48,424 nt of DNA from Candidatus Latescibacterota bacterium (lineage in GTDB: Bacteria; Latescibacterota; UBA2968; UBA8231), in contig CBDBIJ010000121.1 in the NCBI GenBank assembly GCA_965205655.1, positions 1 through 48,424 of the forward strand, in the 5' to 3' direction. Shown piece after piece: positions 24,001-33,000 of this stretch; positions within the stretch are counted from its first letter, which is position 1, and each line of letters starts with the position of its first letter. The position numbers were made by a program.

Positions 24001-27000
24001 ACGTGTCCTGGCAGGGGGCTCTCGGAATTGCCCTCGTGGTGATGGGAGCGTATGTGATCAATCTGAGACGTCTGTCTCCCGCAACCTTGCTCCAGCCGCT
24101 CTTGTCCATGCGACGGGAAGCGCCCGTTCGGCTTGCCGGACTGACGATGATCACGGTGGCCGGCTACTCGATTGTCGACAAACTCGCCGTCGCCGTCATC
24201 GATCCGGTCGTCTACATCTCCACCTTCCAGTCTTGCACGTTTCTGCTTTTCGCGGGTTATGTAGCTGTGAGCAAGGATCTTAGCGCGATCCGCAACGAAT
24301 GGAGATTCAACAAGTGCTCCGTGATCCTGAACGGCATTTTCGGATTGACGAGCTACGTGCTGATTTTGTTTGCATTTCAAACGGAGCGGGTGAGCTACAT
24401 TGTCGGGCTCAGGCAGATCAGTGTGGTCGTGGCCGTGATCCTGGGAGGACAACTGCTGGGCGAAGGATTTCAGCGGATCCGACTGATAGCGTCCTTGCTC
24501 ATCTTCGGCGGCGTCATGCTCATATCAACCGCTGCTTAGGGCGACGGACGTGCTGTCGCCACGGGCTGTACACAGGTGATGAACCGGCTTCTCAACGTAA
24601 CACCACTCGGTGCCAGCGCAGGTTTCACGATGTGCCTGCTGCTCGTCTGCGCGCCCGCGTCGGCCGATTCCGACCGCATTGCCGCGACCGTCCGCTACCT
24701 CAGTTCATTGGGCTCGCGTGTCGTCGGGTACCCGGGCTGCGACAGCGCCGCCGCCTTCATTGAGGCGGAGTTTCGCGCCATGCAACTCGAGCGAATCCGA
24801 CGCGAGCAGTTCGAGATCATCATTCCGATTGATAAGGGCGGGCGACTGCGCGTGGGGGAAGTGGAGATTCCCGCTCACGGCCTGTGGCCGAACCTGGTGC
24901 GCACTCCAACGGTTGCGCCCGAGGGCGTGCACGCACCGATGATCTACGGTGGACACGGAGACTGGACCGACTTCGACGGCCAGGAAGTGGACGGCCGCAT
25001 CGTCCTACTGGAATTCAATAGCGAGGATCGCTGGCTGCACGCCGGTGCCCTGGGCGCCCGGGCAGTCGTTTTCATCGCGCCGGAGAAGAGCACCTGGCTG
25101 CAGGCCAACGAAAAGTACGTCGGGACGCCCCTGGACCTGCCTCGATACTGGATCGACCGCAAGCGCGGTACCGCTCTTCGCCACCAGCTTCTTCAGCAGG
25201 GAGAACTCCCGGTTTCACTGTACGGCAGGATGGACTGGGAGGAACGACCCGCCTGGAACATCGTGGGCGAGATTACCGGAACGGATCCGCAGCTCAAGGA
25301 TGAGCTCGTGGTGGTGCAGGCCTACTATGACGGCATCTCCGTGGTCCCGGCCCTGGCGCCCAGTGCCGAAGCCGCGGCCGGCATCGCCGCTTTGCTCGAG
25401 CTCGGTCGGCATCTGCGGGATCAACCGCCGGCGCGGTCGGTGCTCCTGCTGGCGACCTCGGCCCACTTCCATGACAGGCTGGGCACCAGAGCTTTCTTCG
25501 AACGCCACGCCCGCTTCACCTACGCCGAACGAGTTCCGCAGCCGCTTCCGGTGAAGCTTTTCATCAGTCTCGATCTTTCCAGCCGCAGCGACCGGCTGGG
25601 TATCTGGCACGCCACCGGCATCTCTTCCCTGCGCCGCTTTTACGCTTCATTCGGCCGTCGCTTCACGACCTACGCGCGCCAGATCGCGCCGGGGATCGGT
25701 CTGCATCCGGATCGCGCCCTCGCCAACGGAATCAGTCCCACCCGCGGTCTCGAATGGTGGAACTTCGTGCCGGCCGGGATGATGACCGATGCCCGGGTGG
25801 CTTTCAAGGGTGGACTCGTCTCTCTGCTTTTTGCGACCGTTTTCGATGAGCGATTTCAGCTGGATACACCTCTGGACCTGCCGGAATCGGTCGATTTCGA
25901 GAATCTCGCACGCCAAACGGCGCTGCTCCTGCCGATGCTGCGCCGCGGTCTGAATGATCCAAAGTTGTTTACCGATCTGAAAAGGTTCGGCGCGGTTGTG
26001 AAGGACAGGCTTCGGTACGACGACCGAGGCCAGAGCCCGGTGCTCAGGGATCAGCTCGGCGACCTTAGAGTAGAGGTGCGCGGTTTCCCGAGGAGAAGCC
26101 AATTGCCCGACCAACCGATCGGCGATGCGCTCGTAGTCTTCTCGTGGGGGAGTGTTGGCGCCAAGCCGCTCAAAGGAGTTCGTGCTCTGCGTTACCTTCG
26201 CACCGCCGCGGACGGCAATGTCACCTTCTACGGACTTCCGTATGGCGGGGGCGATCTCACCGTCTATGGCCTGGACCCAATCAGCGGCGATGTTGTCCTG
26301 GCCCCCGACCTGAGCAAGCGCTCTCAGGTCTACAACCAAGCGCGGCCCGGGGGCGCAGTCAGCGTCGGCGTGGGCCCCTCCTCCACCGAAAAGACGATCG
26401 TCACCTTTGCCGCGGTGCCGCGGCCGGTCTACGGCCTGATCGATCCGAATTCGCTTCTACCGATGCGCACCCTGGAGGCGTTTGATCCCGCCGGGCGTGC
26501 GGCGCGCCAGTTCGGCTACGCCATCCACGGTTCCAGCAGCGACGGCGTCGGTGTCGTATTCGGGCCGCGGGGATCGGATCACTCCGACCGCCTCAAACTG
26601 GTGGTGGATGGCGGTCGCATGTTGTTGACAAAGAGCCTGGGCACCGAGAGCGAAAAGCGGGCACGAGGTGTCGGCTTTCTCCTCGCCTCCGAGTCGCTCA
26701 CACCTCAGACCGATCTGCTGGGACTTCGGGACATGTGGCGGCTGACCGAAAGCCGAATTCAGACCATGCGCCGGCACGTCATCGAGAATCAGCGCCTCAC
26801 CCGCCTGCACGAACGGACCCGGCATCTCATGGCGGCGGCCGAGGATGCCGGCCGCGAACTGCGATGGTCCGACTTTGTCGCCAACGTGCGGGAGGCCACG
26901 GGCACGGAGGCGCGGGCGTATCCCGATGCGCTCGCCACCTTGAACGACGTTATCAAGGGCATGTTGTTCTTTCTGGCTTTGGTGATTCCGGCGGCGTTCT

Positions 27001-30000: not shown

Positions 30001-33000
30001 TTGCCGCGGTGGGAGCTTGGCATGGACACCATTCGGACCCAGATCGCAACCGGCATAGATTTCTGGCGGGCGTTCTCTATCGGCGTCACCATCGCCGTGA
30101 CGATCATCAGTTTCTACCAATTGTTCGCGACCGGGCGCGAGAAGAGACTGGAGGTCCGGGCAAAGCTGGAAGGCGCCCCCGGGTCCCGATATCCCAGTAT
30201 ATGCCAGCACGAGGGCTGTGAGCGCCCCTCCCGGGTACGCGGCCTGTGTCTGACTCATCTCGGCCGCGGCGACTTCAATCTATGGGCTTGCGCCGCCCTG
30301 TTCTGCGTCGCCGCTATCTATCCGATCATCCTCGCCAAAACCCTCTTTCCAACGCTTGTGAGCGTCGGTCTTCTGCTGACCTTCGTTCTGATCGCCTTTG
30401 TGTACGCTCCCATCATGTCATTCGTCAGTGCGCGCCTGGATGGGCTGATTGGCCAAGAGGTTTCAATTCCGCACATCCACGAGGCGGCGATCCTGCTGAC
30501 CGGGTACCGCGGAGTGGATATCTGGTTCGTCCCGTTTCCCACTCGCAACTACGGCGGCCACGCGGAGGCATTCCGCGTCGTGGAACTCACCGGCATGCGC
30601 TTCACCAGCCTGCTCAAGGCGGAGCTCTTCATGATTCCGGTCGTCCTCGGAGTCAGCCTCATGTACTGGACGTTCCTCTGGCGACTGGCGCCGATCCCCT
30701 CGGCCAGTTATCCGTACGCCCAGATGATGTGGCCGCTGCAGGCCTTCGATCGGGCCCTGTTCTTCTCCAGCACCATGTACTCGCGGAACTGGCGCGCCGG
30801 CGAAGAGGTGGAAGGCCAGGTGCTTGAGCGCGGGCAGGCGGTCTGGAGTCCGAGCAATCTTCAAGACAGGCGGTTGTGGTACTGGCGCGCCCGCAGCACT
30901 GTCGACGTCCATATTCCCGATCCGGCGAAACGGACGTACGGTCCGTGGTCTCGAGTAGGATACTTCTACACCGACTTCGACGGCGCCGGTCCCCTGGAGG
31001 AAGGTGCTGAACCGGTGAGCCGGCCGCCGGCATCGACGACCCGGGGCCAGTGTCGAGCAACTCGCGGCCGCTCCGCGACTGCTGTGGCCACCAGACGGTG
31101 CGGCAGTGTCGACTCCCAATCCGAATTTCCGGGCGCGGTCGGAGGTGGCCGGCGATGACAGCGTGGATTTCTACTTCCAGGTGGATCGCGTTCCAGACTT
31201 CGACGGTGAGTTTCTCTTCGATTCGGGGGACCGCCCGCTCCTCTTTCAGGTACTCTGGGAGGATTTGAAGTTCACCGGCAATCGCCGCGACGACGATGGG
31301 GACGGTCGCGTCGACGAGGAATTGGTAAATGGGTACGACGACGACGGCGACGGGCGTATCGACGAAGACTTTCACCATCCGCTGGCAGGGCGCAAATGGC
31401 CCATCATCGCCATCGGTGCCGGTTTCGGTCTGGTGGTCTACTTCACCCTTTCCTTTGTCGGCCTGCCCATCTTTCTCATCTGGGGGTATGTGCAGAGCGT
31501 CAACGGCATTCCTCACGACCTGCTGCCGCAGATCATCGGGGCCCTGCTGGCGCGGTTCTACTTTTGGAAGCGGTACGGAAAACAGGAGTGGAGGCGGTAT
31601 GCCATGGTGCTGGCGGTCGGGTTCGGAGCCGGGATGGCATTGATCGGCATGTTCTGTGCCGCCCTGGCCATAATCGGCAAGGCCGTGTCGACTCTCTCCT
31701 ACTGACACGTGAACGTTAGATCATGAAAAATCAGATTCCCAGCGAGTGGCAGCAGGCCGGCGGATTTGCCGGACAGCAGGACCGGGTCGACTCGTCAGGT
31801 CGTGGCGACGGTGTCAGAAAGCGCGCCCTGCTGGTCGGAGCGCTGCTGGTCTGTTTCCTGACGGTGGGAGCTGCCCATGTGGAGATTCTCCTGCGCAGCT
31901 CATACGTGAGCGGCGATGCCAGCACCGTGGGCGCCTTCGTGCTGCTGTTTTTCGTCGGCGGCGTCCTCAATGCGCTCCTGAAGATCGGTGCCCGCATGGG
32001 CGCCGCCATCGTCCTTGCCCTTTTCGCCTGCGCCATCTTCCTCGGATACTACTGGCCCCTCGCCCAGGTGGACCTGCGCTCTCCGAGCGAGCTCTTCTGC
32101 GCCATCCTGGTAGTCCTTGCGCTGTCCAATCTCTACAATGTCAGCCGCGGCCGTTCCCTGGTGCTGAATCGATCTGAGCTGATTCTCGTTTACTTCATGC
32201 TGCTGGTCGCCTCGGCCGTGTGCACGCTGGGTTTAAGTGGACTGATGGTACCCGTGCTCGCCTCGCCGTTCTACTACGCCTCCGGCGACAACCAGTGGGC
32301 GGAGAAGCTGTTCCCTTTGCTTGGGGAACGGCGATTCGTCGTCGACGATGGCCAGGAGAACGTGGCCTTCTTCGAAGGGCTCGGACCCGATGCGGCCGGG
32401 GCTCCCATCGCCGCCTGGGTCGAGCCTCTGTTCTGGTGGGGTGTCTTCGTTCTGGCGCTGTGCGTCACGGTAATCTGCCTGATGGTGATCGTGCGGCGCC
32501 AGTGGATGGAGCACGAGCGCCTTCCCTATCCCGCCGCCCAGGTGCCCATGGCCCTCATCAATGGGGAAGACCGCCGCCGGCTCATCAACGATTTCTTCCG
32601 CAGCGGTAGGATGTGGTGCGGGTGCGCCATTCCACTGGTACTGGGCAGCATGCAGGCCGCGCGGTCATACGACCCGTCCCTGCCACTCGTGGAGCTCAGC
32701 TGGGAGTTCGATTTCTTCGGGGAGATCCTGCCATGCCGGTTCAACTTCATCCTGCTGGGATTCTCCTACCTGATCAACACGCAGATCGCCGCCTCCATCT
32801 GGATCTTTCACCTGCTGTTCAAGGTCGAGTCGCTGCTGCTGCCGGTCATGGGTCTGCGTTCGGTCCAGCCAGCGGTATACGAGGGGGCTACAACGACCTT
32901 CATGGCGTCACAGGGGGGCGGTGCCCTGCTCGCCATGACTGTTGCAGGGCTATGGTTGTCGTGGCAGCACCTCCGGACGGTGGCCAGAGCTGCATTGGGG

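Follow-up and report, generated by a model that had tools for sequence, protein, structure and literature searches.

The locus examined here raises the question of what a very large permease of the MacB/FtsX type, carrying a peptidase-like domain on its outside, does beside a many-helix membrane protein. It lies on contig C121 of a Candidatus Latescibacterota genome, in a stretch of 48,424 nucleotides that was analysed whole and is called the window below. The most likely answer is receptor-assisted uptake through OPT-type carriers: positions 24579-33870 are tentatively read, at somewhat less than an even chance, as one operon for a three-protein membrane complex made up of an M28/FtsX permease, an OPT-type partner and a DUF6785/6784 carrier. 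No paper describing such a three-gene module was found in the literature. The genes, and one base that matters for their extents, are as follows.

24579..29058, + strand: permease gene, ~1475 aa if read through (translations, Pfam M28 and FtsX, uninterrupted orthologues)
27864, + strand: extra base in the permease that shifts the frame, at a short run of A and C within the part coding for the MacB-type periplasmic core domain (sequence and orthologue alignment)
29062..31705, + strand: partner gene, ~880 aa if read through, a predicted divergent OPT-superfamily carrier
31723..33870, + strand: third gene, 715 aa, a DUF6785+DUF6784 membrane protein and predicted distant OPT-like carrier

The initial annotation correctly recognised a large M28/FtsX permease followed by a many-helix membrane gene, but its gene models and extents had to be replaced. 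Orthologue alignments revealed the proteins of 1381 aa (g03398) and 698 aa (g03400), taken as whole genes within 24630-31158, to be frameshift artefacts; the genes in fact extend over 24579-29058 and 29062-31705. On translation, the permease is carried by frame A (24576-27866) and frame B (27859-29058), while its orthologues cross the break site in uninterrupted frames of 1466-1632 aa. The partner switches frame near 31040, in a C3G4 run, and ends at 31705; an orthologue of 882 aa aligns first with one frame (77% identity) and then with another (74%). The partner starts 3 nt beyond the permease stop, and a gap of 17 nt separates it from the third gene, which is a member of the module. With regard to size, the window permease falls in a subfamily of ~1480 aa and not in the one of ~1600 aa to which it had been assigned. 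The gene pair was also thought to exist in two copies, and a paralogous permease is indeed present on C74/C76 (39-52% identity to the window copy), but two partner paralogues follow it in tandem, and the window has the third gene.

Two of the three genes thus carry one-base frameshifts in this assembly, either low-coverage errors or strain-specific lesions, and the window's own copy may be non-functional, which counts against the uptake reading. It is possible, if on balance doubtful, that the window pair is decaying, with both frameshifts real in the strain and the operon being lost from an IS-rich genome, so that the C74/C76 paralogue would carry the function. Run X1, in which all sampled words are present and which may be the source, has both extra bases, and X3, from another study, shares the window form at 31040. 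A third window gene, that for hydantoinase A, is likewise broken into two frames that overlap, and the 48 kb contain no fewer than seven ORFs for transposases or integrases. X1, however, has a depth of just 5.1 and 3.2, and X3 one of 2, and both sites lie inside short homopolymer runs. Contigs from other studies (X2, X3 and X4), otherwise near-identical to the window, lack base 27864 in all three cases (3/4 runs), and the base at 31040 is missing from those of X2 and X4 (2/4). Neither gene shows any lesion beyond its single shift, and identity to the orthologue stays at 57-77% right up to the gene end.

The conservation claimed for the gene pair is borne out, and with it the linkage on which the uptake reading builds. 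The permease was found in 21/21 related genomes searched and is carried by 107 of the 121 sampled genomes of the phylum, in 13 of 14 families. Among the 75 related loci with at least 3 kb of downstream sequence, the partner lies directly downstream on the same strand in 59, and in 14 the permease is fused to DUF6785/6784; an OPT-superfamily neighbour or fusion occurs in 63 of the 65 loci having both flanks. DUF6785 is in the same chain as the permease in 10 of the 120 homologues listed. A large family-less protein is encoded at 19906-23049 and adjoins the module in 7 of 80 related loci, a set that is drawn from the nearest relatives within a single phylum and is not independent.

The outer part of the permease comprises the following features, residues being numbered from 24576.

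24597..24653, + strand: N-terminal hydrophobic segment, signal-peptide-like (hydropathy scan)
24663..26930, + strand: extracytoplasmic head with PA and M28-like pseudo-peptidase, beta-rich domains and a three-helix stalk (orthologue model mapped to the window)
25323..25853, + strand: remodelled metal-site positions Tyr250, Tyr251, Asp252, Glu265, His297, Asp333 and Arg426 (family census, 2ek8 alignment, mapping)

The first segment is probably a signal peptide. Pfam Peptidase_M28 matches the window permease at E 6.3e-06, and the head of an orthologue was modelled with a pLDDT of 91.2 and a pTM of 0.91. The proposed likeness to PA-domain M28 aminopeptidases, transferrin receptor and glutamate carboxypeptidase II is upheld by Foldseek (2ek8, 6.3e-26; TfR1, 3.5e-21; GCPII, 3.5e-18) and by a sequence alignment to 2ek8 (E 4.7e-05). 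The head shares the overall PA and peptidase-like fold of these proteins, BSAP and PaAP included, but carries extra beta domains and a stalk, and is anchored to an FtsX core where they are single-helix anchored or secreted. A passage of PMC11313473 gives the ligands of PaAP as His296, Asp308, Glu341, Asp369 and His467, plus Glu340. Unlike the PA-M28 aminopeptidases, the head has Tyr at the first His-ligand position (73/74 sequences) and Arg at the last (76/76), and no Glu-Glu pair is conserved in the family census of 74-76 sequences. Judged from sequence, canonical zinc and catalytic residues are missing family-wide, so that the catalytic site is lost, as had been suspected. The substitutes (Y248, D250, E263, H295, D333 and R426) hardly vary in their turn, as would suit a putative binding pocket. 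TfR1 is likewise a protein that keeps the fold and has no catalytic site.

Behind the head lies the membrane core.

26931..27185, + strand: three extra transmembrane helices between head and FtsX core (hydropathy scan; helices 2-98 of the C-half model)
28249..28569, + strand: FtsX domain (TM2-TM4) with ER-x-REI motif (Pfam FtsX, E 7.5e-14; PF02687 match in own genome; motif comparison)
28585..29055, + strand: conserved cytoplasmic C-terminal domain, ~160 aa, alpha/beta, not P-loop (invariant columns; C-half model)

The reading of the tail as a MacB/FtsX-type core agrees with the fold matches of the C-half model to MacB (5gko, Foldseek E 7.5e-15) and LolCDE and, by VIA, to HrtB (Z 15.2), the MacB periplasmic domain 3ftj (Z 14.5, rmsd 3.3 over 179 residues) and FtsX 8i6o (Z 13.3). 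With the type VII ABC transporters and mechanotransmitters (MacB, LolCDE, FtsEX-EnvC, HrtBA, YtrEF, YbbAP) the permease shares a four-helix FtsX core, a periplasmic domain between TM1 and TM2, and the ER-x-REI(G) motif; like FtsEX-EnvC, it holds a degenerate metallopeptidase domain outside on a helical stalk. Unlike them, it has no linked or fused ATPase, a head of ~760 aa and three additional TM helices in front, a non-P-loop domain of ~160 aa behind TM4, and carrier-type proteins of the secondary kind adjoining or fused to it (63/65 loci). The C-terminal domain (model residues 545-695, pLDDT 75-89) gives borderline Aha1/START/KA1-like matches (Z 8.0-8.8) and is new and family-specific. In natural fusions DUF6785 is attached directly behind it, and a predicted complex with the DUF6785/6784 protein weakly supports contact between the two. 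That prediction scored 0.40 (runs 0.42, 0.40 and 0.17; best control 0.00), with a contact agreement of at least 72% and a partner pLDDT of at least 74; the mark used is passed by 116/157 solved complexes and 2/215 mismatched pairs, and at 0.60 or below it is reached by 18/157 solved complexes and both passing mismatches.

As the initial annotation stated, no ABC ATPase gene lies beside either copy: ABC_tran has 46 matches in the genome, none of them on C121, C74 or C76. The relatives, which it had left aside, add a few exceptions, 4 of 80 loci having an ABC ATPase match no more than 10 kb away; the typed ATPase at L011 (the same place as L021) is of the importer type, UgpC/MalK-like, and the match at L093 adjoins a separate small FtsX-like match. 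Mechanotransmission, the mechanism first proposed, requires an ATPase, and the window module has no linked one. It is possible, and rather unlikely, that the module is an ATP-driven type VII machine with its ATPase encoded elsewhere. An orphan FtsE-like ATPase would dock on several M28-FtsX paralogues and drive MacB/FtsEX-style movements of the head. The head would work on a substrate outside the cell or in its envelope, comparable to the action of FtsEX through EnvC, a degenerate peptidase, and the OPT-type carriers would import the product. The ER-x-REI(G) motif, which from MacB/FtsX structures we take to be the ATPase dock, is retained, in the C74 copy letter-for-letter as in the genome's FtsE-linked FtsX; this tells against the uptake reading and fits a dock still in use. 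Of the genome's six canonical FtsX loci, five have an ATPase no more than 2 kb off, which makes ATPase coupling the norm for the fold here. An FtsE-like ATPase lies at C29:94921-95676, with no FtsX on its 128-kb contig, and its orthologues in G002, G010 and G008 (82-83% identical to the C29 query, 84-86% by pairwise BLASTP) are also far from FtsX matches. These orphan-type ATPases share one clade with truly FtsX-adjacent FtsE-like ATPases (support 100/99), and in genus g14 the ATPase is 95-98% identical, against 86-90% for the permease. In G017 of that genus the ATPase is encoded immediately upstream, the order on one strand being ATPase, DUF6785, M28-FtsX, partner. Such adjacency, however, is seen in 1/7 g14 genomes; elsewhere in the genus 16, 20 or 45 kb or, in two genomes, at least ~870 kb separate the ATPase from the module, or it is on a different contig. 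Just one FtsE-like ATPase at E<=1e-75 was found in 3/5 permease-bearing genomes of other families. In G000 the orphan's neighbour is a Mutator transposase; a MacA/MacB-type pair without its ATPase opens contig C21, and the orphan may be no more than the one missing from it. Fusions among the 120 homologues listed join the permease to carriers, never to an ATPase. The orphan and the one upstream-adjacent locus therefore keep mechanotransmission alive without showing it.

Receptor-assisted uptake looks instead to the carriers. That the partner matches no Pfam family holds for direct searches, in which neither it nor its close orthologues reach the OPT model. Its relatives (927 representative clusters at E<=1e-3) place it nonetheless, by profile comparison, in the OPT superfamily, as a divergent member: Pfam OPT is matched by 21 of the 60 relatives aligned (best 1.3e-17) and, nearly full length, by relatives at 24-41% identity (e.g., P0227, 24-620 of 623). 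The likeness to DUF6785, earlier dismissed as insignificant, becomes clear with the 60-sequence alignment (hhalign 95.7%, E 8.7e-09, 580 columns), which identifies DUF6785/6784 as a probable distant relative. The third gene itself matches DUF6785 at E 6.5e-93 and DUF6784 at E 3.3e-25; the partner profile found no solved structure by sequence. As in the OPT/Yellow-Stripe-like family (PF03169, TC 2.A.67), the partner is a many-helix carrier; unlike its members, it and its close orthologues bear a Cys/His-rich insert and an Asp-rich repeat insert. Parts of PMC3061005 describe the OPT family as peptide and iron-siderophore/chelate transporters with 16-17 TMS, and predict from genome context mostly peptide uptake for the prokaryotic subclusters examined. 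Free-standing DUF6785/6784 genes at seven places examined in the genome (eight genes or fragments) mostly adjoin sugar catabolism (GFO/IDH/MocA, MR_MLE, GH29 fucosidase, GH4, GHL10, BNR), so that a peptide substrate is not a safe guess.

We infer the direction of transport, the ligand, the physical contacts and the energy source as follows. The dead-peptidase head would capture an extracytoplasmic ligand in its conserved, remodelled pocket, perhaps a peptide, a glycopeptide-like oligomer or a metal chelate. The FtsX core and C-terminal domain could keep the head against the carriers and relay the state of one to the other, and the OPT-type carriers would bring the ligand inward, driven by an ion gradient. 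In TRAP and TTT systems, an extracytoplasmic binding module feeds an ion-driven carrier. They may serve as a working analogy, with no relation in sequence or fold; their receptor is a soluble binding protein, whereas that of the module would be a membrane-anchored pseudo-peptidase on a MacB-type core.

To our knowledge, all characterised MacB-type systems have substrates outside the cytoplasm. An export or envelope-assembly module, in which the OPT-fold proteins send a product outward (e.g., an envelope component that is lipid-linked or polymeric), which the head together with the MacB-type periplasmic domain hands on in the way MacB/LolCDE handle periplasmic or outer-leaflet substrates, would accord with this, with the fold matches to MacB, LolCDE and HrtB and with the family-less neighbour in 7/80 loci, but is improbable in view of the peptide and iron-siderophore transport described, and the mostly peptide uptake predicted, for OPT members in those parts of PMC3061005, and of the catabolic rather than biosynthetic surroundings of the free-standing DUF6785/6784 genes.

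This analysis focused on a module that encodes a MacB/FtsX-type permease together with predicted OPT-type proteins, often in one polypeptide, with a probably inactive peptidase as its outer head and no dedicated ATPase. MacB/FtsX-type proteins are regarded as the membrane part of mechanical devices driven by ATP, OPT-type proteins as free-standing ion-driven carriers, and the Latescibacterota are uncultured polymer degraders. The arrangement is present across nearly the whole phylum, and a genome can have as many as eight matches. Should the products form one complex, it would link the capture of a substrate with secondary transport in a new way, or supply the MacB fold with energy by a new arrangement, and would give a functional context to DUF6785/DUF6784 and to many proteins annotated as 'FtsX-like permease'. 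No published description of the module was found in literature searches. The observation made in the initial annotation is borne out in part, and its interpretation, in which the permease moves a receptor-like head to hand a ligand to its partner, is also supported in part.

Comparison with orthologues allowed the gene models to be corrected. The earlier calls of 1381 aa (permease) and 698 aa (partner) were wrong, as each gene is broken by a frameshift that orthologues read through. In the ORF at 24576–28775, the sequence becomes Arg/Gly/Pro-rich past about residue 1095, and a second ORF (27859–29058) overlaps it in another frame, stopping 3 nt before the partner gene. Permease orthologues in nine relatives have uninterrupted frames of 1466–1632 aa that run straight through this break, indicating one extra base in the window at about 27864, within a short A/C run. 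Up to about 31040 the partner matches its 882-aa orthologue in one frame (77% identity); from there to 31705 the match continues in a different frame (74%), the break sitting in a C3G4 run. Allowing for both breaks, the three genes of the module are:

24579–29058, + strand: permease, M28-FtsX type, about 1475 aa
29062–31705, + strand: partner, carrier-like, about 880 aa
31723–33870, + strand: third gene, 715 aa, Pfam DUF6785 and DUF6784, beginning 17 nt past the partner

The frameshifts were checked in four public sequencing runs from four studies (X1–X4), all of which contain the window stretch. Both extra bases are present in X1 (depth 5.1 and 3.2), where all sampled words were found and which may be the source of the assembly. 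The base at 27864 is absent from the contigs of X2, X3 and X4, and that at 31040 is absent from X2 and X4, while X3, at a depth of 2, has the window's form. The copy of the module in the window is broken or mis-assembled, and the frameshifts may be low-coverage homopolymer error or strain-specific lesions. Programmed frameshifting at 27864 and 31040 is excluded, since near-identical contigs from other studies are without the extra bases and all orthologues read through, and a different genetic code is unnecessary because table 11 frames are open on either side of each break. A third frameshift-like break occurs elsewhere in the window, in a hydantoinase A gene (4906–7018, − strand) that is split into overlapping ORFs (5726–7018 and 4906–6261), which share the Pfam Hydantoinase_A model between them (positions 1–152 and 134–289 of 291).

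The head of the permease had been described as having the fold of PA-domain M28 peptidases, and this was confirmed. Pfam Peptidase_M28 matches the head in the window at 26.5 bits (cut-off 21.3), and on P0015, a homologous fusion protein, the PA domain reaches 22.3 bits, under the cut-off of 23.9. A model of an orthologous head (pLDDT 91.2, pTM 0.91), with a three-helix stalk at its end, retrieved PA-M28 aminopeptidases first in Foldseek (2ek8 at 6.3e-26, BSAP, PaAP), followed by TfR1 (3.5e-21) and GCPII (3.5e-18). PMC11313473 gives the zinc ligands of PaAP as His296, Asp308, Glu341, Asp369 and His467, and Glu340 as the remaining residue of the active site. When these positions were compared in 74–76 members of the permease family, with columns paired by the 2ek8 alignment and motif spacing rather than by coordinates, the first His was found to be Tyr in 73 of 74 sequences and the last His to be Arg in all 76. 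The Glu-Glu pair, comprising one zinc ligand and the catalytic Glu, is unconserved (74–76 sequences), the bridging Asp corresponds in the alignment to Pro260, which is invariant, or possibly to Glu263, and the sole ligand retained is Asp333 (72/74). With the co-catalytic ligand set and the catalytic Glu gone across the family, the head has probably lost catalysis, as the initial annotation proposed. The replacement residues are near-invariant, which suggests that the remodelled site is a conserved pocket serving another function.

The remainder of the protein is of the MacB/FtsX (type VII ABC) type, as previously stated, with the four-helix core of FtsX and a MacB-type periplasmic domain between TM1 and TM2. 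Pfam FtsX matches the window permease (E 7.5e-14), and MacB_PCD was matched on the paralogue on contig C74 and at the related locus L017; NCBIfam gave weak MacB/LolC tails and nothing more. A model of the C-terminal half (pLDDT 71) has three extra helices, then the MacB-type core, and at the end a conserved domain, alpha/beta in structure and about 160 aa long. Foldseek matched the core to MacB (7.5e-15), LolCDE, HrtBA and YtrEF, and VIA returned HrtB (Z 15.2), the MacB periplasmic domain (Z 14.5) and FtsX (Z 13.3). The core retains an ER-x-REI(G) motif; motif coordinates in the window come from alignment mapping and a hydropathy scan. The best fold matches of the 160-aa domain are Aha1/START/KA1-like, but no fold is named here because their Z-scores of 8.0–8.8 are at a level that the tool calls common, and a look-up of this domain in the ESM Atlas gave no usable match.

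The partner had been reported to match no Pfam family, and by direct search this stands, both for the window protein and for orthologues at loci L011, L012 and L016–L020, with the OPT cut-off (PF03169) not reached. It does not hold for more distant homologues. A search with the partner reached 927 representative clusters at E ≤ 1e-3, and relatives at 24–41% identity match Pfam OPT, in all 21 of 60 alignment members, the best at 1.3e-17 (64.2 bits). Likeness to OPT/DUF6785 proteins, earlier dismissed as not significant, was recovered when the partner alignment was compared by hhalign with that of DUF6785/6784 (95.7% probability, E 8.7e-09, 580 columns). The third gene itself matches DUF6785 (E 6.5e-93, 312.4 bits, cut-off 25) and DUF6784 (E 3.3e-25, 88.6 bits, cut-off 26.4), and no NCBIfam family. 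Taken together, the OPT matches of the relatives and the hhalign result place both proteins as predicted, distant carriers of the OPT superfamily, the membership of the partner being transitive and profile-based. A crude hydropathy scan over both frames of the window partner found 11 strong hydrophobic segments; the OPT family, according to PMC3061005, comprises peptide and iron-siderophore transporters with 16–17 TMS. The partner profile had no match among PDB sequences (best E 0.56), and its sole NCBIfam match, to PGF-CTERM, stayed below threshold (16.6 bits, cut-off 24.5). The partner and its orthologues also carry a Cys/His-rich insert, which weakly matches Zf_WRKY19 in 2 of 60 relatives, as well as an Asp-rich insert of DDDGDG-type repeats ahead of the last helices.

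The three genes are closely linked. At least 533 stretches related to the permease occur in species-representative genomes, the best 80 of which all come from MAGs of the Latescibacterota type, some of them under the label Gemmatimonadetes. Of 121 genomes sampled from the phylum, 107 have the C-terminal half (E ≤ 1e-80); they represent 13 of its 14 families, the family f10 having none (0/13). Where at least 3 kb of downstream sequence was available (75 loci), the partner lies directly downstream in 59 and 14 are fusions; the remaining two have neither, one of them being a fusion read in two frames. With both flanks available (65 loci), the order DUF-permease-partner occurs in 34, permease-partner in 15, the window's order in two and fusions in 12, the threshold used having undercounted two more in which the upstream DUF ORF overlaps. 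DUF6785 lies on the same chain as the permease, after the C-terminal domain, in 10 of the 120 homologues listed. Co-folding this domain with the DUF6785/6784 protein scored 0.40 (best control 0.00), in a range (≤0.60) where passes came from just 18 of 157 solved complexes and from both passing mismatches, the mark as a whole being passed by 116 of those 157 and by 2 of 215 mismatched pairs. The contacts agreed to at least 72%, the partner chain had a pLDDT of at least 74, and the model lends weak support to a contact between the two. The paralogue of about 1600 aa has its own conserved surroundings (C74:9925–11397 and C76:5527–8181; loci L017–L019), with NusG_II and Hpre_diP_synt_I genes upstream and, after the partner, a family-less gene of about 340 aa and a PqqD-domain gene.

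No ABC ATPase gene lies beside either copy, as the initial annotation had found: of the 46 ABC_tran matches in the genome, not one is on C121, C74 or C76, the contigs that carry the module. Canonical FtsX loci in the same genome have an ATPase within 2 kb in five of six cases, whereas the two M28-FtsX genes have none. An ABC ATPase match lies within 10 kb at 4 of 80 related loci, and the one at L093 adjoins a separate, small FtsX-like match. An FtsE-like ATPase lies on contig C29, which is without FtsX, and its orthologues in three relatives (82–83% identity to the C29 query) are similarly isolated. The exception to the absence of a neighbouring ATPase is the related genome G017, where the equivalent gene immediately precedes those for DUF6785, permease and partner; six sister genomes have it at distances from 16 kb to about 870 kb or more, or on a separate contig. 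In the tree, these ATPases fall in one FtsE-like clade (support 100/99). Family f10, which is without the permease, has FtsE-like ATPase matches of just 49–51%, and a single FtsE-like ATPase was found in three of five other permease-bearing genomes. An ATP-driven mechanotransmitter with the orphan FtsE-like ATPase as its motor is a candidate reading of the permease. Two ATPases were set aside: that near the orthologue in G002 (L011:17299–19284, the same place as L021), the one typed of the four near related loci and considered as the missing motor, is UgpC/MalK-like, and another, which lies on C22 with a DUF6785 gene to one side and an M28-like gene to the other, is unrelated and adjoins ABC-2 membrane genes.

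A more speculative scheme, and on balance an unlikely one, is that the module represents a new class of transporter, in which a MacB/FtsX mechanotransmitter has lost its dedicated ATPase and is instead connected to OPT-fold carriers driven by ions, its pocket delivering a ligand to the carrier. Movement of the receptor head would be driven by the cycle of the carriers, or by a shared orphan FtsE paralogue serving every one of the 1–8 paralogues per genome. The remodelled M28 pocket (Tyr-Tyr-Asp, Glu, His, Asp, Arg), with a ligand set that may be reminiscent of ferric-ion or anion sites, would bind a metal chelate or peptide terminus, which would then be passed from the head to the carrier. Peptide is just one substrate option, because the free-standing DUF6785/6784 places in the genome (seven examined, with eight genes or fragments) are mostly beside sugar-catabolism genes. 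To judge from their gene neighbourhoods, these look like carriers of sugar-utilisation loci. They lie on contigs C73, C124, C108, C91, C53, C118 and C22 (L105–L111), and their neighbours are mostly GFO/IDH/MocA oxidoreductases, enolase-superfamily proteins, GH29 fucosidase, GH4, GHL10, BNR, PhyH and T9SS-sorted F5/8-type-C proteins.

Other genes in the window include:

19906–23049, − strand: protein of 1047 aa, matched by neither Pfam nor NCBIfam
37460–38833 and 39213–41825: two sulfatase genes
43274–45907, − strand: C25 peptidase of the gingipain family, ending in a T9SS sorting domain

Relatives of the 1047-aa protein adjoin the module at 7 of 80 loci; G002 has two of them in tandem. The 48 kb also hold at least seven transposase/integrase ORFs (Mutator family, rve), at 9537–10532, 15370–17783, 18148–19488, 34925–37133 and 39213–41825, and one ORF of 870 aa specifies a sulfatase followed by a Mutator transposase in a single frame.
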